From assembly GCA_964589975.1 (NCBI GenBank), contig CAZPVH010000003.1:5608-69607 (forward strand): DNA of 64,000 nt. Reading direction: 5' to 3'. The DNA comes from an uncultured Candidatus Saccharibacteria bacterium (GTDB taxonomy: Bacteria; Patescibacteriota; Minisyncoccia; Phycocordibacterales; CSBR16-119). The notes under the pieces were generated by a model. It was not told the origin of the DNA, did no database searches, and saw only the letters and a program-made list of their open reading frames with translations. The position numbers were made by a program, and so were the translations under genes. Positions 844 through 60,629 of the stretch are shown piece by piece; within the stretch, counting starts at the first letter, position 1; every line of letters begins with the position of its first letter.

Positions 844-1797
844 TTATACGAGTTCGAAAAACGTTTCCCAGTACCCGACTTCGAGCTTTGGATGAGAGAG
901 CATGGCGCCCATGCTCGTGGCGCAGATATCAGAGCGGCCGCGCCAGAAGCTTTTTCGGATCTCATAACCGTGCGAGCGAAGGAACTCAACGATTTCTCTG
1001 GCCGAAGAGTCTTTTTTATGAAGAAGCTCTGAATGAATTTCAATAAAGAAATACTTCGGCCTGTTACCCTCTGCTAAGGCCTTCTCCGAACCTTTCAATA
1101 TCTCTTTTTCATACCCCTCAACATCCATCCGGATGAAATCAACTTTCTTAAACTTGAGGAAATCATCGAGCGTCATGATTTCGACTTCGACTTCTTCGTA
1201 TTTCATACCCATATCTTCGCGCTTAATGAAGCTTGACAGGTTACCACGATCATAAACATAGAATTTTGCCTTGCCTCTGTTATCACCGAAAGCGGCCTGA
1301 TGGAGATCTGCGTTTCGAATATTATTTAGCTCCAAATTTTTCTTGAGTGAAGCAAAATTGTGCGGAGCTGGTTCGATGGCGTAGAGATGTCCGGTCGGAC
1401 CGGCGAGTTTCGTTTCGATAAGCGCGTAGTAGCCAATGTTCGCGCCAACTTCAAGAATCTTCATACCAGGAGTAATGATGCTTTTTACTTCTTCTGTTGA
1501 ATTTTTCTCATGAACACCATAGAGCGCCAATTCACGAGATATGCCGAGATCATTTAGATCAAGGATCATCATATTTCCTTGAACTTTTTTCATAATTTTC
1601 CCGTTCTTGAAAACGATGTAGAGAAATTTAAGAGGAATGTACTCGCGGAAAAATCGCTTCACTATAGTGAAAGCGACCGAGGCAGTCTTGCCAACAAAAA
1701 CAACCGGGCCCTTTTCCCTCAGAACCTTTATCCCCTTTTTAAAAAGGTTGTCGTTTGTTTTTAGGAGCGTATTTTTTAAATTTGATAGTCTTTTCAT
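844..1797 (-). CDS. FkbM-family SAM-dependent methyltransferase
   Basis: ILEVGANIGYYAL Rossmann/SAM motif with FkbM-like architecture. Confidence 0.75.
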   Translation of the reverse strand: MKRLSNLKNTLLKTNDNLFKKGIKVLREKGPVVFVGKTASVAFTIVKRFFREYIPLKFLYIVFKNGKIMKKVQGNMMILDLNDLGISRELALYGVHEKNSTEEVKSIITPGMKILEVGANIGYYALIETKLAGPTGHLYAIEPAPHNFASLKKNLELNNIRNADLHQAAFGDNRGKAKFYVYDRGNLSSFIKREDMGMKYEEVEVEIMTLDDFLKFKKVDFIRMDVEGYEKEILKGSEKALAEGNRPKYFFIEIHSELLHKKDSSAREIVEFLRSHGYEIRKSFWRGRSDICATSMGAMLSHPKLEVGYWETFFELV

Positions 1798-5645: not shown

Positions 5646-6314
5646 TTAGAGTTTCAAGCTAACGCGGACCGCCTCAAAAGCTTCGGCATATTTGCATCCG
5701 TTCTCAAAGCCGCGGATCTTGGCTCGGCCTTCGATTGCCTCAATCCAGCGCTCGCCATATTTGGCATGCTGGCTGCGGTGCTCTTTTAGTGACTCAAGCT
5801 TTTGATCAATAGTGTCGGAGATATCAAAATAAACCTGTGCCCGGAATGGGTGGTAAGAACGTCCGGATGGTGGAATAGGTTCGTACATGAAAATGTTGTA
5901 CATGTATCGCGCAGCGGAAATCGTAGCCTGAGCAGTATTTTTATGATCCTGATGAGTATCGAACACCCAGTGAGTAAAGATATACTCCGGCTTGAACTCA
6001 GACATGATCTGATCAAGCGCCTCTACCGTCGATCCGTTATACGGCACGTTCTTGTTCGGGAAATTAAGTACAACGAGGTCGGTCACCCCGAGCTTCGCTG
6101 CGGCTGCTCTGCCTTCGGTCATGGCCTCGTCGACGGTCCGAAGAACTGTCCCATCGAAATTCTGGTATGAGGAATCGGTCATAACGACCATCTTAACCTT
6201 ATGGCCCTCTTTCACAGCCTTGGCTAAAATACCCCCGCAGGCGAGTTCAATATCATCCAAATGCGCCCCTATGGCCAATATATTCATATTGTCTAATCTA
6301 CCCTTTTGGACCAA
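5646..6314 (-). CDS. PIG-L/LmbE-family N-acetylglucosaminyl deacetylase
   Basis: ILAIGAHLDDIELACGG...MVVMTD motif of the PIG-L family. Confidence 0.8.
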   Translation of the reverse strand: MVQKGRLDNMNILAIGAHLDDIELACGGILAKAVKEGHKVKMVVMTDSSYQNFDGTVLRTVDEAMTEGRAAAAKLGVTDLVVLNFPNKNVPYNGSTVEALDQIMSEFKPEYIFTHWVFDTHQDHKNTAQATISAARYMYNIFMYEPIPPSGRSYHPFRAQVYFDISDTIDQKLESLKEHRSQHAKYGERWIEAIEGRAKIRGFENGCKYAEAFEAVRVSLKL

Positions 6315-7053: not shown

Positions 7054-8047
7054 ATAGAGAACTGATATTTTTGATAAGATCGTTAAAATTTTGGTCGATA
7101 GAATAATTCATTTCAATATTTTTCTTTAAATTACGACTGTATTCATTTCGAAGTTCTGGATTTTTAATTAAAGATTCAATTGCGTGCTTCCAGCCCTCTT
7201 TTGTTCCTACCAATAGCCCCGATTTTTTATCCTGGATAATCTGACAGGCCGAAGGTGTAAAATCTGCAACAACTGGGATTCCGAGTTGTGAGAAAACATA
7301 AATCCTTCCCGAATTATTCGACATCTTGAAACGCAGAACATAGTCATTCTTCACATAACTCTCAGGGTTACTGAAGAAAGCCCTAAATGGCCGAGCGAAA
7401 AGTTTGGGTGCCGGAAGCGCCGATGGCGCAATACCAATATCGCACTCTTTTAGATCTTCCAAAAATTTTCCTTCTTCCCACTGTATGTGCTTAACTTTAC
7501 AGATTTTTGGACAATTTTGCGTCCACCTACCCAGCTTGTCTACGTTATAAATAGCGCGCAGTTCTATATCATAAGTCTTGGCAAGTTCATCAAGCGCCCA
7601 CGATGCATCTACCATGGCATCAAGGTGCTGCTTATTCCCGTGATAGCCGATGACTATCTTTTTCTTCTCAACATGAATCTTTTCCGAAACTGGGATATCC
7701 GGGAACATATAATAAATGAAAACATTTTTGTTATATTTGAGAAAAAAATCTCTCTGCTCAATCGAAGAAACAATCAGAAAATCCGCCGCTCGGGCTTCCT
7801 CGCGCTGGCGCGAAAGCGTGACCTTTGGATCGAAAATTCCCGCCAATATTTTAGGATTCATTTGTTTGGCTTTCCTGATTTCTGAGTCTGGTGCCATAAA
7901 TAAAGCGACATCGTAGGCGCGGTAGTTATCCCAAACATTCCTTGTGGCTTCAGACAACCTTTTTACTAGCCCATCCAGAACGATGGTGCCAGCAGCTTTG
8001 TAGTTTGTATTTATGACGAATTTCATGCTGGCCTTATAACTGCCCAA
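7046..8047 (-). CDS. putative glycosyltransferase (GT-B-like), hypothetical
   Basis: C-terminal GIPVVADF...GLLVG region resembles GT1 donor-binding domain; weak. Confidence 0.45.
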   Translation of the reverse strand: MGSYKASMKFVINTNYKAAGTIVLDGLVKRLSEATRNVWDNYRAYDVALFMAPDSEIRKAKQMNPKILAGIFDPKVTLSRQREEARAADFLIVSSIEQRDFFLKYNKNVFIYYMFPDIPVSEKIHVEKKKIVIGYHGNKQHLDAMVDASWALDELAKTYDIELRAIYNVDKLGRWTQNCPKICKVKHIQWEEGKFLEDLKECDIGIAPSALPAPKLFARPFRAFFSNPESYVKNDYVLRFKMSNNSGRIYVFSQLGIPVVADFTPSACQIIQDKKSGLLVGTKEGWKHAIESLIKNPELRNEYSRNLKKNIEMNYSIDQNFNDLIKNISSLYE

Positions 8048-8658
8048 ATCTCTCCGAATTGAACAGTATGGCTATCAATCCTATAACCCGCCTGAGCAAA
8101 TTCCTTTTGGAATTGTGAAAACGTAAATTCAGTAAAGTGCGTCGTATCGAGGCGGTAATCAAGCCCGAGTTCTTTTTTATAAAGGGTCACCCACTCCCTG
8201 TCTATCATGGGCACACGGAATAGGAACTTGTCTGCGAGCGGTCGAATACTCTTTAGGAAATTTACTCTGTCGTCGATATGCTCCAACACATTCGACATGA
8301 TGATGACGTCGAATTTCTCATTTGACAAATCTTTAGTGGCATCAGCTACCCGGTATTCTATATTGACTGCTGAGTGTGCACGTCTCGCCTTTTCCACCAA
8401 ACTTTTCTCTATTTCAACTCCGGTTACTTTTTTTACTTTTTTTGCTACATCGTAAACCAGAGCACCATTGCCACAACCGATATCCAGGACTGTGTCTTCG
8501 GGACCAACATTATTTGCAAAAAATTCATGAAAGCCTATGAGGCGATGCTTGGGGTGGAGCCCTCCCTCATATTTGATTGCCAAATAGGAAATCAGTTTAT
8601 AAGAAAAGCTGTGAAGCTTAAGAGCTAATTTTAGTAAAATTTTATACAAAGCTTTCAT
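8023..8658 (-). CDS. class I SAM-dependent methyltransferase
   Basis: VLDIGCGNGALV motif, LEHI motif. Confidence 0.75.
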   Translation of the reverse strand: MKALYKILLKLALKLHSFSYKLISYLAIKYEGGLHPKHRLIGFHEFFANNVGPEDTVLDIGCGNGALVYDVAKKVKKVTGVEIEKSLVEKARRAHSAVNIEYRVADATKDLSNEKFDVIIMSNVLEHIDDRVNFLKSIRPLADKFLFRVPMIDREWVTLYKKELGLDYRLDTTHFTEFTFSQFQKEFAQAGYRIDSHTVQFGEIWAVIRPA

Positions 8659-15343: not shown

Positions 15344-17776
15344 ATGGCAAAGAAAAAATTGGATAATAAAAAGAAACCGGCAAAAGATACGCTGGGTAAA
15401 TCAGAAGTTCAAGAATTCAAAAAAATCTTGGGCGTCCACATAAGCGAAGAGACGCGAAATAGCATCGTCGCGATATCCTTTTTCGTGCTAGCCATACTCT
15501 TTATTCTCTCTGGATTCAACCTGGGCGGCGTCGCCGGCAGATTCATATATAAGAACTTGGTACATATATTAGGCGTTGGCTACATTCTCTTGCCGCTAGT
15601 CCTAATTCTTCTGGGCGCATCTTCTTACAAATCTCTCCGACCATCACTCGCCATAACCCATCTAATAAGCGGACTTCTATTCTTTCTCTCGGGTCTCGGA
15701 CTCATACATATAATAAAGGCCGACGCGGCCGGTGTTGTCGGCAAATTCACTTCTTGGCCGTTTGTAAAGCTTTTCGATGTGTACCTGGCTTTTATTTTGC
15801 TTCTGGCGGTCTTCGGTATTTCAATTATCATCATGTTCGACGCTCGCCCGAGTCTTTCTCGCTTCAAGCAAAGACTTAAAGCGCTCTTTGGTTCAAAGGA
15901 AGACGAATACTATGAGGAAGCCGATGAGGCCGACGAGCCAGAAGAGGGGCCGGCACCAGAGCCTCTACCTCTTCCTGAGGAATCAGAGCCGGAAGTTCAA
16001 CGAGAAGAGCCCCCAAAGGACGCGATGGCTTTTACCGCGGCCTGGAAGTCTACTGGCAAATATGTTCCCCCTCCCCTCTCGCTCCTTCGAAAGAATGATC
16101 AGAAAGCCGTAACAGGAGACATCAAAGCTAATTCGAACATCATCAAACGAACACTCGAGAATTTTGACATCGCTGTCGAGATGGACGAAGTCACAGTTGG
16201 ACCTACCGTGACTCGTTTTGCCCTGAAACCGGCTCAGGGTGTCAGACTTTCGCGAATTACCGCCCTTTCTAACGAGCTTCGCCTCGCGCTTGCCGCTCCG
16301 TCTATCCGTATCCAGGCCCCTATCCCAGGACAGAGTCTTGTTGGCATAGAAGTGCCGAATGTAAACAAAGCGCTCGTTGACCTCCGCAGCCTCCTCTCCA
16401 CCAAAGATTTCAAAGAAAGCTCGAAGCCTCTCCTTGTGGCGCTTGGCCGTAGCGTTTCCGGCAAAGCTGAGTATGGAAATATAGGCAAAATGCCGCACCT
16501 CTTGGTAGCCGGCGCGACTGGATCCGGTAAGTCGGTGACCGTTCACACCCTCATTACAAGTCTTATATACAGGAACGGCCCGGAGGATCTTCGTTTCATT
16601 ATGATCGACCCGAAGCGCGTCGAACTCACTCTATATAACGGCATCCCTCACCTCCTTACTCCGGTTATTACGAACCCAAAGAAGGCTATCCTCTCTCTCA
16701 AGTGGGCGGTCTCTGAAATGGAACGACGCTATGACATACTCGAGAACCATGCTGTCCGTGACATTGACTCATATCACAAGAAATTTAACGAGCAGAAAAA
16801 TCCCGATGATGCTAACGCGATGGAGCGTATGCCGTTTATATTGATCTTCATCGACGAACTTGCCGATATCATGCAGAGCTATCCACGGGAACTCGAGTCC
16901 GGTATCGTCCGCCTAGCGCAGATGTCCCGAGCCGTAGGTATTCACCTTACTCTCTCGACCCAGCGCCCATCAGTCAACGTCATCACCGGCCTCATCAAGG
17001 CAAACGTTCCGACGCGTCTCGCGCTCCAGGTCGCCAGCCAGATCGACTCCAGAACCATCCTCGACGCCGCTGGCGCAGAGAAACTCCTCGGAGCCGGAGA
17101 TATGCTCTTCGCTTCCGGCGAAATGGCCCAGCCGCAGCGTATCCAGGGAGCTTTTATTTCCGAAGACGAGGTCAAGGAAGTCGCCGGATACCTCAAGAAT
17201 CGCTACAAGAATGAGCTGGCTGATGACATCAACCTTTCCGAAGGCTCAATCAGCTCAGATAAAAGTATTTTTGACAGCCAAATAGACGACGGAGACAAAG
17301 ACGAGCTTTTTGCCGAGGCCAAAGCATTGGTAATCAAAGAAAAGAAAGCTTCAACCTCATATATCCAGCGCCGCCTAAAGATCGGTTATTCTCGCGCCGC
17401 CAGAATCCTCGACGAGCTTGAACAAGCGGGTGTTGTAGGTCCAGCCAATGGCGCCAAGCCACGCGATATCCTATCTGACGGAAACGAGGTCGCGGCCCCA
17501 AGACCGGCCGCTACGGCTGTCTTTGCGTCTGTTGCTCCAGAGCCTGCCCGTATTCACACAGTCACTAGAACGCTAGACACAGAAGACGAGGAAGACCTGA
17601 CGGACGATGTAATGGAAGATGCCGACGAAACCCCTTACGAAGAAATTCCGGTCGAAGATGAAGTTGGTGGTAACGAAATTGATGAAAGTTCAGAAATACT
17701 TCCAGAAGACAAGCCGCTTGGTCGGGAAGATGACGAGAATAGCGATAATTCGTATGACGAGAACGATAAATATTAA
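15344..17776 (+). CDS. ftsK: DNA translocase FtsK/SpoIIIE
   Basis: N-terminal TM segments, acidic linker, Walker A LLVAGATGSGKSV, FtsK motor and C-terminal gamma wHTH domain. Confidence 0.9.
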   Translation: MAKKKLDNKKKPAKDTLGKSEVQEFKKILGVHISEETRNSIVAISFFVLAILFILSGFNLGGVAGRFIYKNLVHILGVGYILLPLVLILLGASSYKSLRPSLAITHLISGLLFFLSGLGLIHIIKADAAGVVGKFTSWPFVKLFDVYLAFILLLAVFGISIIIMFDARPSLSRFKQRLKALFGSKEDEYYEEADEADEPEEGPAPEPLPLPEESEPEVQREEPPKDAMAFTAAWKSTGKYVPPPLSLLRKNDQKAVTGDIKANSNIIKRTLENFDIAVEMDEVTVGPTVTRFALKPAQGVRLSRITALSNELRLALAAPSIRIQAPIPGQSLVGIEVPNVNKALVDLRSLLSTKDFKESSKPLLVALGRSVSGKAEYGNIGKMPHLLVAGATGSGKSVTVHTLITSLIYRNGPEDLRFIMIDPKRVELTLYNGIPHLLTPVITNPKKAILSLKWAVSEMERRYDILENHAVRDIDSYHKKFNEQKNPDDANAMERMPFILIFIDELADIMQSYPRELESGIVRLAQMSRAVGIHLTLSTQRPSVNVITGLIKANVPTRLALQVASQIDSRTILDAAGAEKLLGAGDMLFASGEMAQPQRIQGAFISEDEVKEVAGYLKNRYKNELADDINLSEGSISSDKSIFDSQIDDGDKDELFAEAKALVIKEKKASTSYIQRRLKIGYSRAARILDELEQAGVVGPANGAKPRDILSDGNEVAAPRPAATAVFASVAPEPARIHTVTRTLDTEDEEDLTDDVMEDADETPYEEIPVEDEVGGNEIDESSEILPEDKPLGREDDENSDNSYDENDKY

Positions 17777-19239: not shown

Positions 19240-19279
19240 ATACCAAATAAAAGAACCCCGCACTTAATTCGGGGTCCTT

Positions 19280-19822
19280 TTATTTTATGAGTTCCAGGAG
19301 TTTATAGACTAGCTGTTCTGGGTCTTCTTCGAAGACTATCGGCACATGACTCTTTTTGCCTTCGAGAGATAGGAGCCTGACCGCCTGATCCACTTCCCAA
19401 TCGCCAGTAAGGACTCCGACTGGCTTCCCCGCACGAAGCGCAATATCAAACTCGTGAAGACCCTCCATCTTCCCACAGCCGAGGATGACTGCGTCGGCGG
19501 ACTTTGACATAAACATATTCGCGCCGGCAGGTCCAAAGCCGGTATAGATGATCACATCGCCATGGTCGGTATCAAGCCTATAGCCATCGACATGCTCTTC
19601 TCTGCTCCCAGCCGGAGAAAAATAAATAACGTCGCCTCCTGCCGCTCGCGCGCCCATGGAAGCGAACATCGGAAAGCCGTGATGCGCGCCGGTCAGGACA
19701 AAGTGACCAGTCTTGGCGATCTTTCGGCCAATACGCTTAGCCTTGTCGAGAGTGTCGAGTGGAACGTTAGCTGGCTCAATCGCGCCAGCGATACAAATTT
19801 TGTACTTCTGCTTTTTTATCAC
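19280..19822 (-). CDS. TIGR00725/LOG(SLOG)-family Rossmann-fold nucleotide-binding protein
   Basis: KICIAGA...FVLTGAHHGFPMFASMGARAAGG...ILGCG resembles the LOG/DprA-like SLOG superfamily. Confidence 0.6.
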   Translation of the reverse strand: MIKKQKYKICIAGAIEPANVPLDTLDKAKRIGRKIAKTGHFVLTGAHHGFPMFASMGARAAGGDVIYFSPAGSREEHVDGYRLDTDHGDVIIYTGFGPAGANMFMSKSADAVILGCGKMEGLHEFDIALRAGKPVGVLTGDWEVDQAVRLLSLEGKKSHVPIVFEEDPEQLVYKLLELIK

Positions 19823-19874
19823 AATTTGATTATATCAAAGCTTTTGACGGTTAGCTGTTAGCTTCTAGTGGGAA

Positions 19875-19900
19875 AACGCCGCGCCGTAAGGCGCGGCGTT
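19875..19900 (-). terminator. intrinsic terminator following element A
   Basis: aacgccgcgccgtaaggcgcggcgtt perfect hairpin followed by a UUUUCCC tract on the minus strand. Confidence 0.65.
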
Positions 19901-19910
19901 TCATTCCCCT

Positions 19911-20001
19911 CTCCGCGAAGCAGAATATTTCTTTTTTGAGTCCGAGGACCTAGTGCGAAGACACGATCCCGCAGGACGAGAAAAAGAAATGTTCTGCGGA
20001 G
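19911..20001. repeat. conserved-core stem-loop element, copy A (core 19942-19975)
   Basis: Core CCGAGGACCTAGtgcgaagacaCGATCCCGCAGG inside an imperfect ~20-bp inverted repeat; it abuts the stop of the minus-strand RNase gene and precedes the hairpin terminator at 19875-19900. Confidence 0.7.
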
Positions 20002-21396
20002 CTAAAACTCCAGTTCTACTACCTGATTCTGCTCCGGCACGATAGCCGTAACGCCCAAATTATCGTGAAGTTTCTGCGCCAAGAACATTGAAACGCGTGG
20101 TTCACCCATGACCACAAATGCTTTTTTGAGCGTGTCTTTAGTGCTTTCGATGAATTTAACCAAGTGAAACGAATCTTTGTGTCCGGAGAATCCTTGGATC
20201 ATCACGACTTTCGCTCGAACATGCACGCGCTCGAACATAATCATAACCTGGTCTCGGCCTTCTTGGAGCATGCGTCCTAGAGTTCCCGGCACCTGATAGC
20301 CAGTGAGGAGGAGCGTCGCATTCGGATCCCCCAAATAATTCTTTTCATGATGAAGAATCCTTCCGCCAGAAGACATCCCAGAGCCAGCCATGATGATCTT
20401 TGGACCCGGAACTTTTAAAATATTTATTGACTCTTGAGTAATTTCCGTCTCCTTGAGCCCCGGGAAGCTAAAAATGTTGTCTCCCTGACTGATCTGCATC
20501 CGGACTGTTTCTTTAAGGAGATTTAGATGCCTTCTAAATACATCTGTTATACGAATTGCGAGCGGAGAATCAAGGAATATCTTTATTTGTGGAATCTGCT
20601 TCGATTCGACGAAATTATTGAGTTCGTAGAGAAATTCTTGGGTGCGTTCAAGTGAAAAGATCGGCACCATCAAAACGCCCTTCTTGTTATATGTTTCGAG
20701 TATGACTTTTTTCAAATTCTCTTCCCTCTCTGCGCGCTGCTCGTGATTTCTGTCGCCATAAACCGACTCCATGACAATATATTTGGCGTCGGTAATTTCT
20801 TCCGTATCAGCCAAAAGTGGCGACGGCGAGTTTCCAAGGTCCCCTGTAAAGACAATCTTCGAGCCATTGTATGTTATTTCAGCCATGACAGACCCGAGGA
20901 TATGTCCGGCGTCTTTGAAAAATACCGACAATGGCCCGAGGTGAAAATCCTCGTGATACTCATGCGTTTCCCACATATGATCAATCTTGGAGAGCACAGA
21001 TGTTCCGTACATTTCGCCGAGATGATACTTCGGCGCGGATTTCGAGTTTGCCAAAATATGCGCGGTGTCTGCAAGCATGACAGCCGTCAGATCGCGTGTA
21101 GCCGCGGTTCCGATAATTCTGCCCTTGAAGCCCTCATAAACAAGCTTAGGAATGCGGCCGATGTGATCTTCGTGAGCGTGCGTGACGATCAGTGCATCGA
21201 TATCTGCCGGATTATATGGGAATGGCTCCCAGTTATCGAATTCGGCCAGATGCTCACCCTGAATAAGGCCACAGTCCACAAGAAGACGAAACGGCTTCTC
21301 CCCCGATTCCGGCATCGTTTCGAGCAAAAAATTTGCGCCGGTCACCCAGCCCGCGCCGCCCGCAAAAGTAAGTTTTAATTTCTTAACGATGGTCAT
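20002..21396 (-). CDS. MBL-fold metallo-hydrolase, beta-CASP family ribonuclease (RNase J/CPSF-like)
   Basis: HxHxDH motif (VTHAHEDHIG), followed by beta-CASP-like and RNA-specificity regions. Confidence 0.8.
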   Translation of the reverse strand: MTIVKKLKLTFAGGAGWVTGANFLLETMPESGEKPFRLLVDCGLIQGEHLAEFDNWEPFPYNPADIDALIVTHAHEDHIGRIPKLVYEGFKGRIIGTAATRDLTAVMLADTAHILANSKSAPKYHLGEMYGTSVLSKIDHMWETHEYHEDFHLGPLSVFFKDAGHILGSVMAEITYNGSKIVFTGDLGNSPSPLLADTEEITDAKYIVMESVYGDRNHEQRAEREENLKKVILETYNKKGVLMVPIFSLERTQEFLYELNNFVESKQIPQIKIFLDSPLAIRITDVFRRHLNLLKETVRMQISQGDNIFSFPGLKETEITQESINILKVPGPKIIMAGSGMSSGGRILHHEKNYLGDPNATLLLTGYQVPGTLGRMLQEGRDQVMIMFERVHVRAKVVMIQGFSGHKDSFHLVKFIESTKDTLKKAFVVMGEPRVSMFLAQKLHDNLGVTAIVPEQNQVVELEF

Positions 21397-23347: not shown

Positions 23348-23399
23348 TCTTTTATATTTTTATAAACTTATCCATCACTTCCTTCTCTACTTCATCTCT
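23348..23399. repeat. direct repeat, copy 1: duplicated 3' end and terminator tail of the 909-aa ATPase gene
   Basis: 23362-23399 matches 24620-24657 at 37 of 38 positions, and the preceding T-tracts also match. On the minus strand it would encode ...RDEVEKEVMDKFIKI* versus the ATPase C-terminus ...RDEVEKEVMDKFMKI*. Confidence 0.7.
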
Positions 23400-24565: not shown

Positions 24566-24608
24566 TACATATAAAAGACCTCTTTATCATAAAAGAGGTC
24601 TTTTATTT
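24566..24608. terminator. bidirectional hairpin terminator between gene 24104-24559 and the ATPase gene
   Basis: aaaagacctctttatcataaaagaggtctttt perfect hairpin with T/A tracts on both sides. Confidence 0.6.
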
Positions 24609-24657
24609 TTTATATCTTCATAAACTTATCCATCACTTCCTTCTCTACCTCATCTCT
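24599..24657. repeat. direct repeat, copy 2: authentic 3' end of the ATPase gene
   Basis: Partner of 23348-23399; the two copies bracket a ~1.2-kb cassette containing the two small secreted-protein genes at 23490-24559. Confidence 0.7.
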
Positions 24658-27339
24658 CGGTCGTCCATACTTGAGGAATGAAAGTTCTTTGAGAGAGTCG
24701 ACAATATCTGGATTTCCTGCTGGTAAGTCTTGTGTACGAATATTGAATGGCTTAACTGGCGTACCGTCGACGAGCATGGACACATACGCATTACGGTTAT
24801 CTAGCTTCATGATGTCTTGAACGGTAAAGACTGGGTCCAAACGCTTCTGCAAAATCTCCGCATCTTCGGAACTAATACGGAATATTGCCATCGAACCAAC
24901 GTTACCGAGTACGGCATTTCGAATATCGTCCGAGAGTTGTGACAAATACTGGTGGGCAACATTAAGACCGAGCTTGTATTTTCGTGCTTCAGAGAGAATC
25001 GAAGAAATAGATGGGGTGGTGAAATTCTGAAACTCGTCTATGTAGAGATAAAACGGTGGAAAATTTGCGCCGTGCGAGTCGGCACGAGAAAGTGCTGCCA
25101 TTTGGATCTTTCCTACCAGAATGAGACCTAAGAGGTTTGCATTGATATCTCCAAGTCTTCCCTTCGAAAGGTTTACCAGTAAGATTTTCTTGTTATCAAT
25201 AATCTCGCGGAAATTAAAGCTTGATTTCTCCTGAGCGATAATTGGACGCATAATTTCGTTAGAAATAAATGTGTCGAATTTGGACGTAATATACGGAACG
25301 AAGTTCTCTAGTCCTTGCTCACCTGTAGTCGCTTCAGCGGTTTTCCAGAATTGCTTGATGATTGGGTTCGTACAACGTTCTAGCTTCATATCACGGAATT
25401 TCTTGTCAGAGAGAACACGACCAATTTCAAGAATAGTATTACCTGTGGACGGATCAGACATCACAAGTCCGGCAGAATTCTTGAAATACTGCTCGAAAAG
25501 TGGTCCACCGGCGGTCTTCATATCAAAGAGCTGACTAAAAATACCGAGGAGTTCGTTAATCACAAGCGTCTTCTGTTCCGGACGCTCTGGATCAAACTCG
25601 AGCATATTGAGGCCCATTGGCCGCGCAGTTGAGGCTGGATCGAAATAAATGACGTCATCAATGCGATGTTTTGGGATATAAGAAAGGATTTTCTGGATGT
25701 CGGATCCGTGTGGATCTATGTAGCAAACACCGTCACCCCGCTCGATATCCTGACGAATCATGTTCATCATAATACCGGTCTTACCAGTTCCAGTCTGGCC
25801 GATAACATAAAAATGCCTCATGCGATCGAGCTCCTGGAGGTAAATATCGGTATCAACTCCGCGATGCGTGTTGATACCGATTTGAACGCCGCCACCAACC
25901 ATATTGAGCGGCGCAGACGCGGAACCTGCTTTTGACTCTTTGAGCTCTGGTGAAGACGCAAGACCTACCGGGAAATGCACGAGCGTCGAGAGTTCTTTGA
26001 AATTGAGCGGCAAGGCCGAAGCTTCGGTCGGCAGGCGGAATGAAAATGAATGGAGAAACTGATCCAAATGCTTGTCGTCGACCTTTTTAAACTTGAGACT
26101 GTTTGAGCTTGGCTTCTCGAACTGAGAGAACGCCGATTCAATGTTTGCAATTATCTCGCCTGTTCGAATGGCGCTATCTGACGAAGCCACGACACGGATA
26201 TTCGCCAGCATGATGGTCGACTTGATCTTCTCGGTAATATTTTCGACAGCTTTGTCGTCGATATCCTTTTCTTCCTTCTCTTCTGTCTTCTTGGGTCCTT
26301 TCCAAAGCATTGTTCCAAAGCTCTTTAGCTCTTTCTTTACGTCGCCAAACTCATCCAATATATGCTTAAGTTTTTCGCCTTTTTTCACCTTATCAAGATA
26401 TCCGGAGAATTTCTTAATGTATCTGTCCCCCGCCGGCATGATGACGAACTGGAGCGCCGCGCCTTCTTTCGTTTTATCAAGCTTCGAGAAGGCGTTCAGG
26501 ATCGTATTCATCGGATCATGATCAAACTCATCGTGAGTTTTGAGTGGAAACACCTCATGATCGCCAAACTCTGCCGATGCCGCCATAATCGAGCCGCCTG
26601 AGTTAAAGACATTGTAATCATTCGTAACTTCGGTGATCTTTGCATTCTTGTAAAATGACAGTATCTGTTTTTCAAGCAGAGTTTTTCGATCTTTTGGAAT
26701 GGAGACATAAAAAACGATTTCCGGTGAATCATGTGATACGGCAATCTCAATTGTGAAATATTGCTTATATTTATTATTCTCCCCATTCGATATGGTCTGC
26801 ATACCGGCATAAAACTGTTCCATAGCGGAAAGAAATTCTTTGAAAGTTTTTTCTTTCTCTTCTGAAGCTGGCAGAGTTACTTCAAAAAGCGCGAGGTTGA
26901 GAGATTTCCATTCTGGCGAACTCTCGGAGAGCCCGGGGACTTGATGAGAAGTGTGGAGGAACTGAATCAAGAATCTGTGAAAGTCGTCCTCAAGATGCGG
27001 ATTATGCATACGGGAAACGATATCCATGGTGTTTTTTATACCGTGCTCTAGGAGTAGGCCATAAAGCTCTTCGATTTGACTATCATGTTCTTCTGGCTTG
27101 AGGGCCAGGACCATGCTTTCGGCCTCTTTCTCTGGCACACGGTAGCTTTCATGAAGCACTTCGGCTGAGTCGGCTTTTTTGTACGCGGAAAGCGTCTCAT
27201 GAGTCACTTCTTCGCGAGATTTTTCAAGCTTAGCACCAGCGTTCACTCTCTCTTGTTCGGCAACTTTCTCGCGCAAATAAGCGAGCTCCTCTTCAGGAGT
27301 CTTGAACGCGCCTTTTTCCATGATCTGAGCCCCTTCCAT
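24610..27339 (-). CDS. large P-loop ATPase of the FtsK/HerA/TraG(VirD4) superfamily with ~430-aa N-terminal domain of unknown function
   Basis: Walker A GQTGTGKTG followed by DPHGS; Walker B LYIDEFQNF; downstream AHQYLSQL motif as in type-IV coupling/HerA-like ATPases; no TM segments. Confidence 0.7.
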   Translation of the reverse strand: MEGAQIMEKGAFKTPEEELAYLREKVAEQERVNAGAKLEKSREEVTHETLSAYKKADSAEVLHESYRVPEKEAESMVLALKPEEHDSQIEELYGLLLEHGIKNTMDIVSRMHNPHLEDDFHRFLIQFLHTSHQVPGLSESSPEWKSLNLALFEVTLPASEEKEKTFKEFLSAMEQFYAGMQTISNGENNKYKQYFTIEIAVSHDSPEIVFYVSIPKDRKTLLEKQILSFYKNAKITEVTNDYNVFNSGGSIMAASAEFGDHEVFPLKTHDEFDHDPMNTILNAFSKLDKTKEGAALQFVIMPAGDRYIKKFSGYLDKVKKGEKLKHILDEFGDVKKELKSFGTMLWKGPKKTEEKEEKDIDDKAVENITEKIKSTIMLANIRVVASSDSAIRTGEIIANIESAFSQFEKPSSNSLKFKKVDDKHLDQFLHSFSFRLPTEASALPLNFKELSTLVHFPVGLASSPELKESKAGSASAPLNMVGGGVQIGINTHRGVDTDIYLQELDRMRHFYVIGQTGTGKTGIMMNMIRQDIERGDGVCYIDPHGSDIQKILSYIPKHRIDDVIYFDPASTARPMGLNMLEFDPERPEQKTLVINELLGIFSQLFDMKTAGGPLFEQYFKNSAGLVMSDPSTGNTILEIGRVLSDKKFRDMKLERCTNPIIKQFWKTAEATTGEQGLENFVPYITSKFDTFISNEIMRPIIAQEKSSFNFREIIDNKKILLVNLSKGRLGDINANLLGLILVGKIQMAALSRADSHGANFPPFYLYIDEFQNFTTPSISSILSEARKYKLGLNVAHQYLSQLSDDIRNAVLGNVGSMAIFRISSEDAEILQKRLDPVFTVQDIMKLDNRNAYVSMLVDGTPVKPFNIRTQDLPAGNPDIVDSLKELSFLKYGRPRDEVEKEVMDKFMKI

Positions 27340-27340
27340 C

Positions 27341-27452
27341 CCGTTAGTGACAGGTCGCGGTCGTCATTCCGCCACCAGCAATTAAATTTATAATCTTGGT
27401 CATAGTTTCTTACATATGCATTTTACCCGCACGCGACCGCGGTCACTAACGG
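27341..27452. promoter_or_regulatory. long imperfect inverted repeat flanking a 68-nt AT-rich spacer, immediately upstream of the 909-aa ATPase start codon
   Basis: Arm 1 at 27341-27363 (ccgttagtgacaggtcgcggtcg) and arm 2 at 27432-27452 (cgcgaccgcggtcactaacgg), which contains the 10-bp palindrome GACCGCGGTC. Arm 1 begins 2 nt after the start codon on the minus strand. Confidence 0.6.
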
Positions 27453-27558
27453 GATCCATATGGATAATATTGTAACATGAAAGAAAAAGACCCTTGTTGC
27501 CAAGCAAAGCGAAAGAGCCGGCAGAACCGGCTCTTAAGTAAACTTCTTACACAGGCCT

Positions 27559-28598: not shown

Positions 28599-29189
28599 CT
28601 ATTTTATAGCTTCAACTTTTGCAATGATTTCTTTATGTACGTCTTCTATAGATTGCTCGCCGTTTATCTCGTAGAAATCATAATCCTTGTTGTCATAGAA
28701 GTACGCCATGGCTGGCACAACATTCCAGTCGAACCATGAAAGACGAGACTTGATGTACTCATCGGAGTCATCACTTCGTCCGCGCGACTTCAATCGGTCA
28801 AACGACCATTGGTCCGATGTCTTAATAAAGAAAACAATCGGTTTGCTGAGTTTGAAGAATTTTACGGCGGAGTCGAGGACCGGGGCCTCATCAGGGCGGC
28901 GACAAAGACCGTCGAGGATAAGATCGCGCTTGCCGTCGAATTTGTTTACCAAGTCCCCTGTCCAAAGCCAGATCGGGAGGAAAACCGGCATAAGTCCGCC
29001 ATGAGAGAGAACCTCTTTTGTCATCTGGGCGGAGTAATTTGACTGATCGATAAAGTTCCTGAATTTCTGTCCGGTTTCTATATAAATAGGCTCAACCCCC
29101 TTTTTATCAAGGATATATTTTTTCAGCATTTCAGCCTGAGTGCCCTTGCCGGAGCCGGAACGGCCGAAGAAGATGAATGTTTGTTGCAT
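28599..29189 (-). CDS. adk: adenylate kinase-family nucleoside monophosphate kinase
   Basis: P-loop GRSGSGKGTQAE typical of adenylate kinases; adk-map gene order. Confidence 0.75.
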   Translation of the reverse strand: MQQTFIFFGRSGSGKGTQAEMLKKYILDKKGVEPIYIETGQKFRNFIDQSNYSAQMTKEVLSHGGLMPVFLPIWLWTGDLVNKFDGKRDLILDGLCRRPDEAPVLDSAVKFFKLSKPIVFFIKTSDQWSFDRLKSRGRSDDSDEYIKSRLSWFDWNVVPAMAYFYDNKDYDFYEINGEQSIEDVHKEIIAKVEAIK

Positions 29190-29244
29190 ACGGCTGATTA
29201 TAGCGGAAAAGGGCTAAAAACAAAGTGGCTTAAATATCAAGGAA

Positions 29245-29274
29245 AATGCCCCTCCGCAAGGAGGGGCATTTTCT
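29245..29274 (-). terminator. intrinsic terminator following element B (downstream of rpsR)
   Basis: aaaatgcccctccgcaaggaggggcatttt perfect hairpin with flanking U-tract. Confidence 0.65.
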
Positions 29275-29290
29275 TAAATCATCTTTTGGT

Positions 29291-29370
29291 GGAGCAACAT
29301 GCCCATTTTAGAATCCGAGGACCTAGCGTAGCGATCCCGCAGGATTATAAAATGGGCAAATTGCGGAGCG
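29291..29370. repeat. conserved-core stem-loop element, copy B (core 29315-29343)
   Basis: Core CCGAGGACCTAGcgtagCGATCCCGCAGG inside an inverted repeat; it lies between the rpsR stop (29375) and the hairpin terminator at 29245-29274. Confidence 0.7.
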
Positions 29371-29374
29371 TTCG

Positions 29375-29575
29375 CTATTCAGCGACGAATGGAAGGAGTC
29401 CCATGATCCTGGCGCGTTTGACGGCGAGAGAGACTTTCTTCTGATTCTTTGAAGAGAGCTTGGTCTTTCGCTTACCCATGAGGCGTGCAGAAGCATCCAA
29501 GAACTGCTTCAGAATCGCAGTGTCCTTGTAGTCGATATGCTTTATATTGTTCGATGAGAAATAATCTTGCTGCAT
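29375..29575 (-). CDS. rpsR: 30S ribosomal protein S18
   Basis: S18 signature; rpsF-ssb-rpsR context. Confidence 0.85.
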   Translation of the reverse strand: MQQDYFSSNNIKHIDYKDTAILKQFLDASARLMGKRKTKLSSKNQKKVSLAVKRARIMGLLPFVAE

Positions 29576-51355: not shown

Positions 51356-51410
51356 CCATGTACAGTATGCAAAAAGGGCCCCCGTTAGCGGGGGCCCTTT
51401 TTCGTTCATG

Positions 51411-54760: not shown

Positions 54761-55444
54761 ATGGCGCTATCAGACAAAAGGATATTGGAAGAAATGAAGA
54801 AGGGCGATATCATCATCGACCCGTTTATCAGAAAGAATCTCGCGACTTCGAGCTATGACCTCACGCTCGGCGAATTCTATTTCCGCGAGCAGCCACCAAA
54901 GTACAACCACAATCTCTTTAACATCTGGAACCAAGAGCACGTTGAACATGTCTGGGGCAAGAAGGCCTTTAAGGCCGAAAAAGCGAGCGAGGTATTCAAG
55001 AAATATAACTTCAATTACGTCGGCATAGACCGGAACGACAGAGTGATCCTGATCCGACCTGGAGAAACGATTTTGGCCCACACAAACGAGTTTATCGGTG
55101 GCAAGAATCATATCACAACCATGATGAAAGCCCGCTCATCCATGGGCCGAAGCTTCATAGAGGTTTGTAAGTGCGCAGGCTGGGGCGATGTAGGCTATGT
55201 GAACCGATGGACAATGGAAATTACGAACAATTCAAAAAATTACGCCATCCCCCTCGTTGTCGGCCGCCGCATTGCCCAACTCGTTTTCTTCGAGACCGGA
55301 CCGATCCTTGATCGCGACTATACCAAGGCCGGAAAATACTCGACTTCAACTGATCTAAAGGTCTTGAAGAAAAAATGGAAACCAAGCGATATGATCCCAC
55401 GGCTTTACAAAGACGCGAATGGAGAGAAGAAGAAAAAGAAATGA
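54761..55444 (+). CDS. dcd: dCTP deaminase family protein
   Basis: Dcd/dUTPase-like jelly-roll motifs (RSSMGRSFIEV...GW.G....E). Confidence 0.75.
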   Translation: MALSDKRILEEMKKGDIIIDPFIRKNLATSSYDLTLGEFYFREQPPKYNHNLFNIWNQEHVEHVWGKKAFKAEKASEVFKKYNFNYVGIDRNDRVILIRPGETILAHTNEFIGGKNHITTMMKARSSMGRSFIEVCKCAGWGDVGYVNRWTMEITNNSKNYAIPLVVGRRIAQLVFFETGPILDRDYTKAGKYSTSTDLKVLKKKWKPSDMIPRLYKDANGEKKKKK

Positions 55445-55932
55445 TTTCCATTATTTCTTCCATTCAGATGAGCGACCGAGGCCTCGGCTACGAGAACGAC
55501 CTCCTTTTCAAGATCCCGGAAGACCTCAAGCGCTTCCGCGATCTGACCATAGGACATCCGGTCATCATGGGTCGACGAACCTGGGAATCCCTACCACTAA
55601 AATTCCGCCCGCTCCCCGGAAGAACGAATATAGTCATTACATCAAAAGACTTAAGTGCTAGCCCGGAAGTCATCGTCTGCAAAAACGTTGAAGACGCCGT
55701 GAGTGAAGCTAAAAAGCTCGATAAAGATTTCGCCATCATCGGCGGCGCCATGGTTTTCAATAAGACGCTTCCCTATACCAACAGGCTCCTTCTAACTGAA
55801 ATAGAGGGTAACAAGACATCCGACACCTTTTTCCCGGAATTCAAAAATGATTTCGTGCTAGAAAATTCCGCCGGACCATTTGAGACAGCTGAAGGAATAA
55901 AATACTGGTTCAACGACTACAAAAGAAAATAA
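55441..55932 (+). CDS. folA: dihydrofolate reductase
   Basis: Start moved to Met at 55441 (ATGA overlap with dcd); DHFR motifs IMGRRTWESLP, IIGG. Confidence 0.85.
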   Translation: MISIISSIQMSDRGLGYENDLLFKIPEDLKRFRDLTIGHPVIMGRRTWESLPLKFRPLPGRTNIVITSKDLSASPEVIVCKNVEDAVSEAKKLDKDFAIIGGAMVFNKTLPYTNRLLLTEIEGNKTSDTFFPEFKNDFVLENSAGPFETAEGIKYWFNDYKRK

Positions 55933-55956
55933 TTCCCTTTCTCTCCCTCTCCTCAG

Positions 55957-56043
55957 CAAAAGAAAAAACACATTTCCGAATCCCGAGGACCTAGTGACGT
56001 TGTCACGATCCCGCAGGGTGAGGAAATGTGTTTTTTCTTTTGC
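55957..56043. repeat. conserved-core stem-loop element, copy C (core 55983-56017)
   Basis: Core CCGAGGACCTAGtgacgttgtcaCGATCCCGCAGG inside a perfect 21-bp inverted repeat (gcaaaagaaaaaacacatttc / gaaatgtgttttttcttttgc); between convergent dfrA and rplK stops. Confidence 0.75.
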
Positions 56044-56046
56044 TTC

Positions 56047-56478
56047 CTACTTCACCTCTATGCCCATCGATCGGCATTGCCCTTCAACAATCTTCATGGC
56101 GGCTTCGATAGTGTTTGCTGAGAGATCCTTCATCTTTAGAGTCGCGATTTCTTCAACCTTGGCCCTACTAATCGTTCCAGCCTTCTTTGTGGCGTTTTTT
56201 GATGATCCCTTGTCGATCCCAGCGGCCTTGAGGATTAAGGGGCCAGTAAGTGGGGTTTTGGTATCGAATTCGTAGGTCCTATCCTCGAATACACGAAGTT
56301 TGACTGAAACCTTGCCCTGACCGATCATATCCTTTGTTCGATCGTTGAATTCTGTAACGAAAACACCAATAGGAATACCAGCCTGACCGATGGTAGGACC
56401 AATAGGCGGAGCTGGCGTTGCGCGCCCGGCTTCGATCTGCATTTTAACGTTTTTTACTACTTTCTTTTTGCTGGCCAT
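56047..56478 (-). CDS. rplK: 50S ribosomal protein L11
   Basis: L11 N-terminal PPIGPTIGQ motif. Confidence 0.95.
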   Translation of the reverse strand: MASKKKVVKNVKMQIEAGRATPAPPIGPTIGQAGIPIGVFVTEFNDRTKDMIGQGKVSVKLRVFEDRTYEFDTKTPLTGPLILKAAGIDKGSSKNATKKAGTISRAKVEEIATLKMKDLSANTIEAAMKIVEGQCRSMGIEVK

Positions 56479-57680: not shown

Positions 57681-57709
57681 CTGATAGCGTATAGCTTATA
57701 GAAAACGAA

Positions 57710-57737
57710 AAGCCCTGCGTGCGTGCACGCAGGGCTT
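57710..57737. terminator. bidirectional GC-rich hairpin terminator
   Basis: aagccctgcgtgcgtgcacgcagggctt perfect palindromic stem between convergent genes 57405-57680 and 57742-58281. Confidence 0.6.
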
Positions 57738-57741
57738 TCGA

Positions 57742-58281: not shown

Positions 58282-58340
58282 GAGCGTAGGTGTTGTTTGT
58301 CTTTAATCTACTCCTCCCCCGCTGCTTTTGCAAGCATGAG

Positions 58341-58364
58341 AAAATCCGCTTCACAGCGGATTTT
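58341..58364 (-). terminator. intrinsic terminator following element D (downstream of fusA)
   Basis: aaaatccgcttcacagcggatttt hairpin followed by a UUUUCUC tract on the minus strand. Confidence 0.65.
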
Positions 58365-58377
58365 CCTCTTTCTCTAA

Positions 58378-58462
58378 GCGGAGCAAAATCTGAATTTTCT
58401 GAACCCGAGGACCTAGCAAAGCGATCCCGCAGCGGTGAAGAAAATTCAGATTTTGCGGAGCG
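58378..58462. repeat. conserved-core stem-loop element, copy D (core 58405-58432)
   Basis: Core CCGAGGACCTAGcaaagCGATCCCGCAG inside a 17-bp inverted repeat; it lies between the fusA stop (58467) and the hairpin terminator at 58341-58364. Confidence 0.7.
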
Positions 58463-58466
58463 ACTT

Positions 58467-60629
58467 TTATTTCGCTGGCGTGCCTGCGCGCTTCTTGATG
58501 ATCTCTTCGGCAACGTTCTTTGGCACAACATCGTAGCGGAGGAATTCCATTGTGAAGTTTCCGCGGCCGGCCGTCATCGAACGGAGATTATTGATGTAGC
58601 CGAACATTTCAGAGAGTGGTACGACAGCTTTAATAGCCTGGACCATTCCTCGGTCTTCGGTACCCTCAACGAGTCCTCGCTTTGAAGCAATGTCGCCTGT
58701 GATGTCTCCCATGTTTGCATGAGGGGCCACAACTTCAACTTTCATCATAGGCTCAAGGATAACTGGATTCGCTTTTCGCGCAGCTTCCTGGAAGGCCATG
58801 GAGCCGGCGATCTTGAAGGCGATTTCTGAGGAGTCGACATCGTGGTATGAACCGTCGTAAAGCTCGACGCGAACATCAGTAATTGGATAACCAGCCACCA
58901 CACCGCGCTGCATAGATTCGATAATACCCTTTTCGACAGCCGGGATAAATTCGTTCGGGATGACGCCTCCTTTGATGGCGTTAACGAACTCGAGCCCGTC
59001 TTCACGAGTCGTGTTCTTTGGCAAGTCTTCAACAGGAATACTGTAGTCGATTGGAGAAAGGCGAATTCTGACATGGCCGTACTGACCGCGTCCGCCGGAC
59101 TGCTTAACGTATTTGTGATCGACTTCGGCATTGCCTTTGATGGTTTCGCGGAAAGCGACCTGCGGCGCGGAAGTGTTCGCCTCAACGGAGAATTCCCTCT
59201 TCATGCGGTCAACGAGGATTTCCAAGTGTAGTTCTCCCATACCAGCGATGATGGTTTCGCCAGTTTCAGGATCAGATGATACGCGGAATGTTGGATCTTC
59301 GGCGGAGAGACGCGACAGGGCAAGGCCCATTTTCTCCTGATCAGCCTTAGTTTTCGGCTCGATTCGCATGGAAATAACCGGCTCAGGGGCGATGATTCGT
59401 TCAAGGATGATCGGCTTGTCTTCATCGCAAAGAGTGTCAGATGTCGTTGTGTCTTTGAGGCCGACGGCCGCGGCAATTTCACCGGCGTAAACAACCTTTA
59501 CCTCTTCTCGTTCGTTGGCGTGCATACGGAGGATTCGGCCAATACGCTCTTTAGTATTTTTTGTCGCATTGTAAACATATGATCCGGCTTCTAGAGAACC
59601 CGAGTAAACGCGGATGAAAGTGAGCTGGCCGACGTATGGATCAGACTGAAGCTTGAACGCGAGCGCGGAAAGAGGCGCTGTGTCAGAAGGCTCCCTGGTG
59701 ATAGTCTCTCCGGTATTCGGATCAATTCCGTGAGTCATCGGGATATCGAGAGGCGATGGCAAATAGTCGACAACGCCGTCAAGGACGAGCTGAACGCCTT
59801 TGTTCTTCAAAGCTGATCCCGCAAAAACTGGGAAGATAGCATTATTGATGACAGCCTTTCGTAGGACCTTCTTTAGATCTTCGATTGGAAAATCTGTCTT
59901 GCCATCAAGATACTCTGACATCATCTTCTCGTCATTTTCGACGATTTTTTCTAGGAGTTCCATATGGAATTTCTCCGCCTCGGTCTTGTAAGCTTCAGGG
60001 ATTTCCATTTCAATAACATCTTTGCCCTTGTCGCCTTCGAACCTGTAGGCCTTCATCTTTAGGAGGTCGATGACAGCTTCGAACTGGTCTTCTAGACCGA
60101 TCGGGATCTGAATTCGAACGGCTTTCTTCGTGAGGCGGGCTAGGATAGACTCGTATGATTTCTCAAAAGAGGCTCCGGTTCGGTCGAGCTTGTTGATGAA
60201 GCAGAGGCGCGGAACATTTCCTTCGTCGGCATAGCGCCAGTTCGTTTCTGACTGAGGCTCAACGCCGGCCACGCCGTCAAAGACGACGACTGCGCCGTCG
60301 AGAACGCGGAGGGATCGCTTAACTTCGATCGTGAAGTCGATGTGTCCCGGGGTGTCGATCAGGTTAAAGCGAGTCTTCTTCGTCGTGTCGCCTTTCGGCA
60401 TGTAAGTCGGGCTCCAGAAACAAGTTGTGGCGGCGGAGGTAATGGTGATTCCCCTCTCTCGCTCCTGCTCCATCCAGTCCATGACCGTGTCGCCCTCGTG
60501 AACTTCGCCGATCTTGTGGGACATTCCGGTATAAAAAAGCACGCGCTCAGATGTCGTGGTCTTACCAGCATCGATGTGCGCGATGATTCCAAAATTTCTA
60601 ACTTTCTCCAGAGGATAATCCCTTCCCAT
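58467..60629 (-). CDS. fusA: elongation factor G
   Basis: G domain [14 protein letters not shown]; full EF-G length. Confidence 0.95.

Follow-up and report, generated by a model that had tools for sequence, protein, structure and literature searches.

The junction between the convergent dfrA and rplK genes, in a 64,000-nucleotide stretch of DNA from an uncultured Candidatus Saccharibacteria bacterium (hereafter, the window), carries a 90-nt hairpin situated immediately 3' of rplK (L11). This hairpin, referred to as copy C, belongs to a family of lineage-specific gene-end palindromes of a Saccharibacteria clade, which has no Rfam match and no description in the searchable literature. We give slightly better than an even chance to the reading that copy C is an rplK-oriented member of this family that additionally ends both of the operons meeting at the junction, its conserved core being a sense-strand RNA module. 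Judged from sequence and folding models, the boundary of the two convergent operons very probably lies at copy C, whose anatomy fits that of a factor-independent bidirectional terminator; termination at the hairpin itself is plausible on the same grounds. To our knowledge, Saccharibacteria and other CPR bacteria have tiny genomes with almost no characterised non-coding elements. In this context, the family is of interest as a set of elements kept directly past the stop codons of core genes (S18, L11, EF-G and a beta-CASP RNase), and its novelty lies in the combination of an oriented, stop-adjacent position, an invariant and portable core, fast-evolving Watson-Crick arms, and interchangeability with terminators at orthologous sites.

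A family of gene-end palindromes with an invariant core

The conserved core that an earlier note on this DNA had placed at the apex of copy C is bipartite and invariant across the four copies of the window (A to D; Table 1). The pattern CCGAGGACCTAG-N(3-30)-CGATCCCGCAG has four matches in the window, all on the plus strand and with 5-11 nt between the two halves, versus 0.00 expected from shuffled sequences. The core totals 22 invariant nt, and its sense form reads 5'-CUGCGGGAUCG-(mini-hairpin)-CUAGGUCCUCG-3'. A covariance model (R1) built from 15 copies scored copy C at 59.4 bits (E about 1e-17), and its search of the window found no copies beyond A-D. All four window copies are intergenic, lie on the minus strand in their sense form, and are found 0-10 nt past stop codons. 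One box of copy A overlaps by 1 nt the stop codon of the beta-CASP RNase gene (20002-21396), and the boxes of copy D read GCGGAGC on the plus strand (58378-58384 and 58455-58461). On the minus strand, a terminator with a GC-rich stem and a U-tract comes after each of copies A, B and D (19873-19902, 29242-29275 and 58340-58366, respectively); past copy B, the terminator at 29242-29275 precedes adk.

In the window and in its relatives alike, every copy runs in the same sense as the gene whose stop codon lies 0-10 nt upstream. The element had previously been treated as strand-neutral, and this is contradicted by the orientation of the core, which always follows the gene that the element abuts. 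For copy C this gene is rplK, on the minus strand, so that transcription from dfrA would yield only the complementary sequence of the core. The rule is illustrated by the related locus L012, where two convergent genes are separated by a pair of copies that face each other at a distance of 30 nt, each in the sense of the gene that it follows. Furthermore, the G-U pairs of the core and of the apical mini-hairpin (P3) occur on the sense strand only, where the plus strand would give C-A mismatches. The pairs beside the core covary, three of them having changed on both sides (score 0.173, versus 0.062 for shuffled alignments; 0/500 reach it). The minimum-free-energy fold gives the core an inner helix (GGGAUC/GGUCCU) that is invariant in 15 canonical copies; this register is doubtful, as six variant cores break it in 15 of 36 cells, and a shifted inner register suits these variants better, yet imperfectly. 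K-turn, loop E and GNRA-receptor motifs were dropped as candidates for the core after a check by eye; its internal loop, beside the GC-UNY-GC mini-hairpin, may be UAA/GAN-like.

The exact core was found at 45 loci in a scan of 185,579 species genomes. Seven of these loci (L002, L012, L014, L019, L028, L030 and L045) have hairpin flanks and low GC content, and they come from four uncultured Candidatus Saccharibacteria metagenome-assembled genomes (MAGs) only; the other 38/45 are chance matches in high-GC DNA lacking hairpin flanks. Chance also accounts for 72 of the 76 loci from the metagenome scan with the exact core, and for the single viral locus. The covariance model added diverged copies: L012b, L019b, L030b, L124 and two in L125. 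The L11 proteins most similar to that of the window are encoded on the same MAG contigs as the element-bearing loci, and L11 identity among the element-bearing genomes is only 79-92%. Across this distance, orthologous 3' sites are shared at rpsR (window copy B and L045), a comM-like gene (L012b and L030b), rplK (window copy C, L124 and L128/129) and fusA (window copy D and L125). The arms of the orthologs differ in sequence, each copy keeping its own complementarity. Broadly, the basal stem of ~20 bp (P1) varies from copy to copy, and a heptamer, GCUYCGC, flanks most copies in direct orientation; these boxes are missing at copy C, at its L124 ortholog and at L014.

The related genomes also contain many elements past stop codons that lack the core and show the order GCUYCGC box, perfect ~20-bp palindrome, variable interior, box (Table 1). 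Their interiors often hold a canonical terminator, and some elements are nested, as in L125, where the element at 8022-8155 encloses another at 8051-8122. At a further L125 site (17485-17647), two convergent genes share one palindrome, which has inverted boxes at its two ends. L130 contains, at 19882-20432, a gene for a reverse transcriptase (Pfam RVT_1), about 9 kb from the rplK element and with no evident link to it.

The core is also present on a second scaffold. In four low-GC metagenome contigs (L074, L076, L085 and L093), an identical core caps a rod-like imperfect hairpin of ~145 nt, which is part of a conserved intergenic element (about 235 nt) that is multi-copy and occurs in unrelated gene contexts; L076 has two copies, one of them with the same scaffold but a different apex, AAGGCGCUACGCUUCCUCCUAG. 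On this basis, the core behaves as a portable module.

Regarding identity with described RNAs, Rfam 15 gave no match in the window at the gathering score, only generic long-hairpin (miRNA-type) models on copy C at E <= 10, and no match on L074, L076, L085 or L093; ribozymes, SRP RNA, 6S RNA, tmRNA and Y RNA were dropped as candidate identities after these scans. With ARAGORN, neither the window nor the surroundings of smpB in L093 yielded a tRNA or tmRNA. BLAST comparison of copy C with plasmid and phage collections returned no match, and a full-text literature search using the core sequences and Saccharibacteria repeats found nothing relevant.

Table 1. Coordinates of the copies, of the parts of copy C, of the neighbouring genes and of related elements (window positions, unless a related locus is named).
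Feature	Positions	Strand	Remarks
Copy A	19920-19997; with GCUYCGC boxes 19915..20002	-	Adjoins stop of beta-CASP metallo-beta-lactamase ribonuclease gene
Copy B	29294-29364; with boxes 29290..29369	-	5 nt past rpsR stop (29375-29377)
Copy C, whole hairpin	55955..56044	sense = minus (rplK)	2 nt from rplK stop, 22 nt from dfrA stop
Copy C, P1 5' arm, sense strand AGCAAAAGAAAAAACACAUUUCC	56022..56044	-	A-rich; complement of plus-strand U-tract
Copy C, P1 3' arm, sense strand GGAAAUGUGUUUUUUCUUUUGCU	55955..55977	-	Includes minus-strand U-tract U6CU4 (55958-55968)
Copy C, U-tract UUUUUUCUUUU	56031..56041	+	3' of upper hairpin when thyA-dcd-dfrA is transcribed
Copy C, upper hairpin, 62 nt	55969..56030	either strand	9-bp stem CACAUUUCC/GGAAAUGUG plus core; proposed terminator hairpin on both strands
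Copy C, core 5' half, sense strand CCUGCGGGAUCG	56006..56017	-	Invariant, n=15 copies
Copy C, P3, variable apical mini-hairpin	55995..56005	-	UGAC-AAC-GUCA in copy C; GC-UNY-GC in most copies
Copy C, core 3' half, sense strand CUAGGUCCUCGG	55983..55994	-	Invariant, n=15 copies
Copy D	58383-58456; with boxes 58378..58461	-	5 nt past fusA stop; fusA ends at 58467
rplK (L11)	56047..56478	-	Last gene of secE-nusG-rplK; stop 56047-56049
dfrA (DHFR)	55375..55932	+	Last gene of thyA-dcd-dfrA; stop 55930-55932; converges on rplK
Coreless box-palindrome elements, L125	8022-8155, 10439-10555, 17342-17463, 17485-17647		
Coreless box-palindrome elements, L131	2714-2832, 4122-4182, 9132-9289		
Coreless box-palindrome elements, other loci	L127 10439-10591; L130 10439-10556; L132 10439-10562; L134 10439-10558		
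Second-scaffold element	L076 283-505, 1954-2189; L093 3400-3635; L074 about 150-250; L085 about 1000-1095		

Copy C at the dfrA/rplK junction

The plus-strand operon thyA-dcd-dfrA and the minus-strand operon secE-nusG-rplK converge at copy C, and the gene identities proposed from the open reading frames were borne out by Pfam (DHFR_1, DCD, Thymidylat_synt, Ribosomal_L11, NusG and SecE). The longest dfrA ORF, which begins at 55375, overlaps the 3' end of dcd (54761-55444) by 70 nt; since a shorter DHFR, of 163 aa, was called on the source contig, the true dfrA start is probably downstream of 55375. In this clade, rplK is not followed by rplA, its place being taken by a variable region and a convergent DHFR gene, and the genes for dTMP synthesis (tmk, thyA, dcd, dfrA and dut) are clustered beside secE-nusG-rplK.

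Both arms described earlier, gcaaaagaaaaaacacatttc (55957-55977) and gaaatgtgttttttcttttgc (56023-56043), are present and perfectly complementary, and the perfect pairing is longer than first noted, extending over 23 bp (55955-55977 with 56022-56044). The 101-nt region of copy C folds with -48.2 kcal/mol on the plus strand and -49.3 kcal/mol on the minus strand (z = -8.8 and -8.5, respectively), and none of 200 shuffled sequences is equally stable. The 3' arm is U-rich whichever strand is read, as had been claimed: it is identical on both strands and carries the tail UUUUUUCUUUUGCU. The hairpin measures 62-90 nt, with a basal stem rich in A and U. When the A/U-rich base of P1 is taken as the tract, the upper 62-nt hairpin retains -26.6 kcal/mol (plus) and -27.2 kcal/mol (minus), with a 9-bp stem beside the U-tract that contains four G-C pairs and encloses a structured insert of 44 nt.

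Several observations point to this hairpin as the place where both operons end. Copy C is the sole hairpin in the 114-nt convergent junction, and, in agreement with the earlier note, no separate terminator comparable to those following A, B and D is found between the dfrA and rplK stop codons. The genome represented by the window uses canonical L-shaped terminators, GC-rich at convergent junctions, and four other convergent junctions have one canonical bidirectional terminator each (19247-19281, 24571-24606, about 51364-51402 and 57708-57739). The canonical terminators of the genome span -12 to -27 kcal/mol, and the upper hairpin of copy C matches the most stable of them; UUUUUUCUUUU (U6CU4), which stands directly past the upper hairpin on both strands, is better than the U-tracts of most of them. 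The suggestion that copy C is a bidirectional terminator is supported in part; a consensus terminator scan did not call it. The scan passes over copy C because the 44-nt structured insert stands in the place of the loop; copy C lacks the short loop (3-8 nt) and the compact, GC-rich stem expected of intrinsic terminators.

The same site in related genomes is informative in this respect. A homologous arrangement of box, 20-bp palindrome and box is found at the 3' end of rplK in eight related loci. Canonical terminators lie inside this palindrome in L125/126, L127, L130, L132/133 and L134, and the L128/129 site has the core together with a canonical terminator (AAAAAACCAGCC...GGCUGGUUUUUU) inserted in the P3 apical hairpin. 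As the palindromes of the relatives mostly enclose terminators, the rplK 3' site would be the operon termination region throughout the clade. A comparable exchange occurs at the convergent recA/SLOG junction, where the window has the canonical bidirectional terminator at 19247-19281 and L014 a core-type element (5887-5974), which is box-less and overlaps both stop codons. The element can thus replace or enclose a canonical terminator at orthologous junctions.

Copy C and its closest relative, L124, agree at 46/46 arm positions and differ in the interior of the element; identity between their rplK genes is 83% over the whole gene and 57% at third codon positions. It is accordingly the sequence of these arms that is conserved, not their pairing alone, as expected if the A- and U-tracts matter. 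Among the copies examined, those with U-poor 3' arms (A, B and L030a) always have a separate terminator, and those with U-rich 3' arms (C, L124 and L014) have none. The separate terminators at A, B and D imply that the element as such is not a sufficient terminator.

In the explanation that we favour, a family element starts 0-10 nt past a stop codon and consists of a Watson-Crick P1 of ~20 bp, usual GCUYCGC boxes and the invariant apical core, and at most sites a canonical intrinsic terminator lies beyond it. On either strand, copy C has an A-rich arm on the 5' side and a U-rich arm on the 3' side. A polymerase arriving from either direction would then produce the 62-nt hairpin (about -27 kcal/mol) followed by UUUUUUCUUUU, and both the secE-nusG-rplK and the thyA-dcd-dfrA transcripts would end at copy C. 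The core is envisaged as a sense-strand RNA module of the rplK transcript only, most likely serving protein binding or a tertiary contact, and it would be dispensable for termination. Rho-dependent termination or tolerated convergent read-through may otherwise operate at the dfrA/rplK junction.

Alternative explanations and likeness to known systems

A different origin for these features is possible, though clearly less probable than termination by a gene-end RNA element: the family may be a selfish palindromic repeat acting at the DNA level, of the MITE, foldback or REP type, with termination at copy C as an incidental by-product of a long hairpin with A/T-rich arms. Under this explanation, an enzyme recognising the core, cleaving at the GCUYCGC (GCGRAGC) boxes, or both, would mobilise the element as a single-stranded DNA hairpin, and the arms would be kept complementary by palindrome correction through template switching, with no selection on RNA. 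The composition of the arms agrees with it. In 29 palindromes of this type, 546 pairs are Watson-Crick, 5 are G-U, 10 are A-C and 8 are other combinations; the P1 arms show no excess of G-U on the sense strand, which indicates that pairing is constrained equally on both strands. Strictly Watson-Crick arms of this kind fit equally well a structure that folds from either strand and a palindrome maintained in DNA by template switching. Since arm pairing fits the latter too, compensatory changes in P1 are no proof of RNA-level selection, a lesson that applies to RNA-motif discovery in general, as compensatory changes in long palindromes need not mean RNA selection. Other observations in favour of a DNA-level repeat are the loose arm consensus, GCAAAAUCUnAAUUUUCU, with arms of different copies differing by up to about 40% and the complementarity within each copy perfect; the arms of window copy D and L012b, which differ by only 1 nt although they follow different genes in different genomes; and the flanking of the palindrome by direct repeats of one heptamer.

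The distribution of the element is also relevant here. Of the relatives compared at the fusA 3' end, L125 shares the element with the window, and six others have just a canonical terminator directly after the stop codon. Such presence/absence at orthologous sites, as judged from sequence comparison, suggests mobility rather than an indispensable function. Together, the fusA and recA sites, the nesting of elements in L125, the loose arm consensus and the multi-copy second scaffold, which stands in unrelated gene contexts (L076 twice, and L093), indicate gain and loss over evolution in the manner of REP or MITE sequences.

Nevertheless, several results are difficult to accommodate in a purely DNA-level repeat. 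The asymmetric core follows the upstream gene in every copy, which is unexpected of a strand-neutral palindrome. The flanking direct repeats are always the same heptamer, GCUYCGC, absent at copy C and L014, and this constancy is unlike an ordinary target-site duplication. As to a MITE identity, the presence/absence polymorphism agrees with it, but the constant heptamer and the variable arms leave it doubtful. Copies persist at orthologous positions across 79-92% L11 identity with the core invariant and the arms turning over, and at copy C the arms are conserved in sequence and not in pairing alone. Finally, no transposase or other mobilising gene was found beside any copy in the approximately 64 kb of the window plus the flanks inspected.

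The family can be compared with several described systems. REP and BIME sequences, which are imperfect palindromes, have been reported to stabilise upstream mRNA and to act as weak terminators, and REP sequences less than 15 nt from a stop codon to affect translation. The present elements resemble REP/BIME of Enterobacteria (and also ERIC and RUP) in being multi-copy, extragenic 3' palindromes, often a few nt past stop codons and within the mRNA. They differ from REP in that the REP stem is conserved, with 5' GT(A/G)G and no conserved apical core; here the stems vary below an invariant apex and are flanked by GCUYCGC rather than GTAG. No RAYT gene came to light in the 64-kb window or the flanks of the related loci. 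Correia elements (CREE) and paired DNA-uptake sequences (DUS) of Neisseria are gene-end inverted repeats that double as terminators or processing sites, and the likeness to them extends to a dispersed occurrence with presence/absence polymorphism. However, Correia elements end in conserved inverted repeats of 26 bp and duplicate a TA target, and DUS pairs are short and very abundant, whereas the arms of the present element are not conserved. Reading the GCUYCGC boxes as uptake sequences was rejected because of their mere 2-fold (approximately) enrichment in the window, where all boxes outside A, B and D are inside genes.

With canonical bidirectional terminators, copy C shares a hairpin flanked by an A-tract and a U-tract, its location at a convergent junction and a comparable energy; it departs from them in its length of 62-90 nt, its AU-rich base and the 44-nt insert that replaces a loop of 3-8 nt. 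This insert is asymmetric and invariant in sequence, unlike terminator loops, and is common to copies that are not terminators. Integron attC sites are similar in being hairpins placed right after an ORF stop codon, oriented with the ORF and conserved in structure with variable sequence. The attC identity was rejected because the inverse core sites RYYYAAC/GTTRRRY are missing, the base of the family hairpin being GCAAAA/UUUUGC; in contrast to attC, the boxes are direct and not inverted, and instead of cassettes, housekeeping genes in orthologous positions lie upstream. An integrase was likewise not seen in the 64-kb window or in the flanks of the related loci. By analogy, the closest systems in action would be REP/BIME, Correia elements and paired uptake sequences, and the closest in position and mechanism would be the bidirectional intrinsic terminator.

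It is unlikely that the element is a sense-strand module of the 3'-UTR that acts post-transcriptionally and is no terminator, the convergent operons ending by Rho or by overlap. Such a module might bind a protein or an RNase and thereby stabilise or process the mRNA, or it might form a roadblock coupled with the termination of translation; the latter is considered because the element starts inside the ribosome footprint of the stop codon. The invariant, sense-oriented core with G-U pairs on the sense strand only, the constant distance of 0-10 nt from the stop codon and the highly expressed genes that the element follows (rpsR, rplK and fusA) are all consistent with this role. Copies A, B and D have their own downstream terminators, so the element must do something else there. 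Yet this explanation does not account for the replacement of terminators by copy C and L014 at convergent junctions, nor for the avoidance of G-U in the arms, and the terminators inside the palindromes of relatives would truncate the RNA ahead of the 3' arm. An independent small RNA gene or self-cleaving ribozyme, intergenic by chance, is highly improbable: a conserved core on variable stems does resemble small ribozymes, and L093 has a rod-like ~145-nt RNA with the same apex, antisense to both neighbours, but no promoter precedes the window copies, which start 0-10 nt past stop codons, variant cores alter the supposedly catalytic invariant positions, and Rfam, ribozyme classes included, gave no match beyond generic hairpin models (gathering score; E <= 10).

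Returning to copy C as a gene-end element that also ends both operons, a broader proposal can be advanced tentatively, and we hold it to be rather doubtful as a whole. The core might be a new sense-strand RNA recognition module, recruiting a factor to housekeeping mRNAs at their 3' ends in Saccharibacteria and to the ~145-nt rod RNA in other uncultured bacteria of low GC content. The box-palindrome-box scaffolds might in turn be self-maintaining, lineage-specific cassettes that carry either the core or a terminator and are evolutionarily interchangeable with ordinary terminators. Should the core bind a factor, this would point to a layer of 3'-end biology particular to the lineage. If copy C terminates in both directions, a dispersed repeat would have been recruited as an operon boundary in a reduced genome, and a natural terminator with a large structured insert would be available to probe the limits of hairpin-dependent termination.

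Two other repeats were observed in the window. A perfect 14-bp inverted repeat, ATCCCGTTAGTGAC/GTCACTAACGGGAT (27338-27351 and 27442-27455, arms 90 nt apart), is intergenic, upstream of a minus-strand gene of 909 aa (24610-27339), and unrelated to the core element; Rfam gave nothing in this region (27338-27455). The repeat is also present in L012 (646-727) and L045 (2847-2957), and it is thus a conserved feature. A direct repeat of 50 nt, 94% identical between its copies at 23350-23399 and 24608-24657, adjoins a terminator at each of these positions, and a third, weaker copy is found at 28600-28649.
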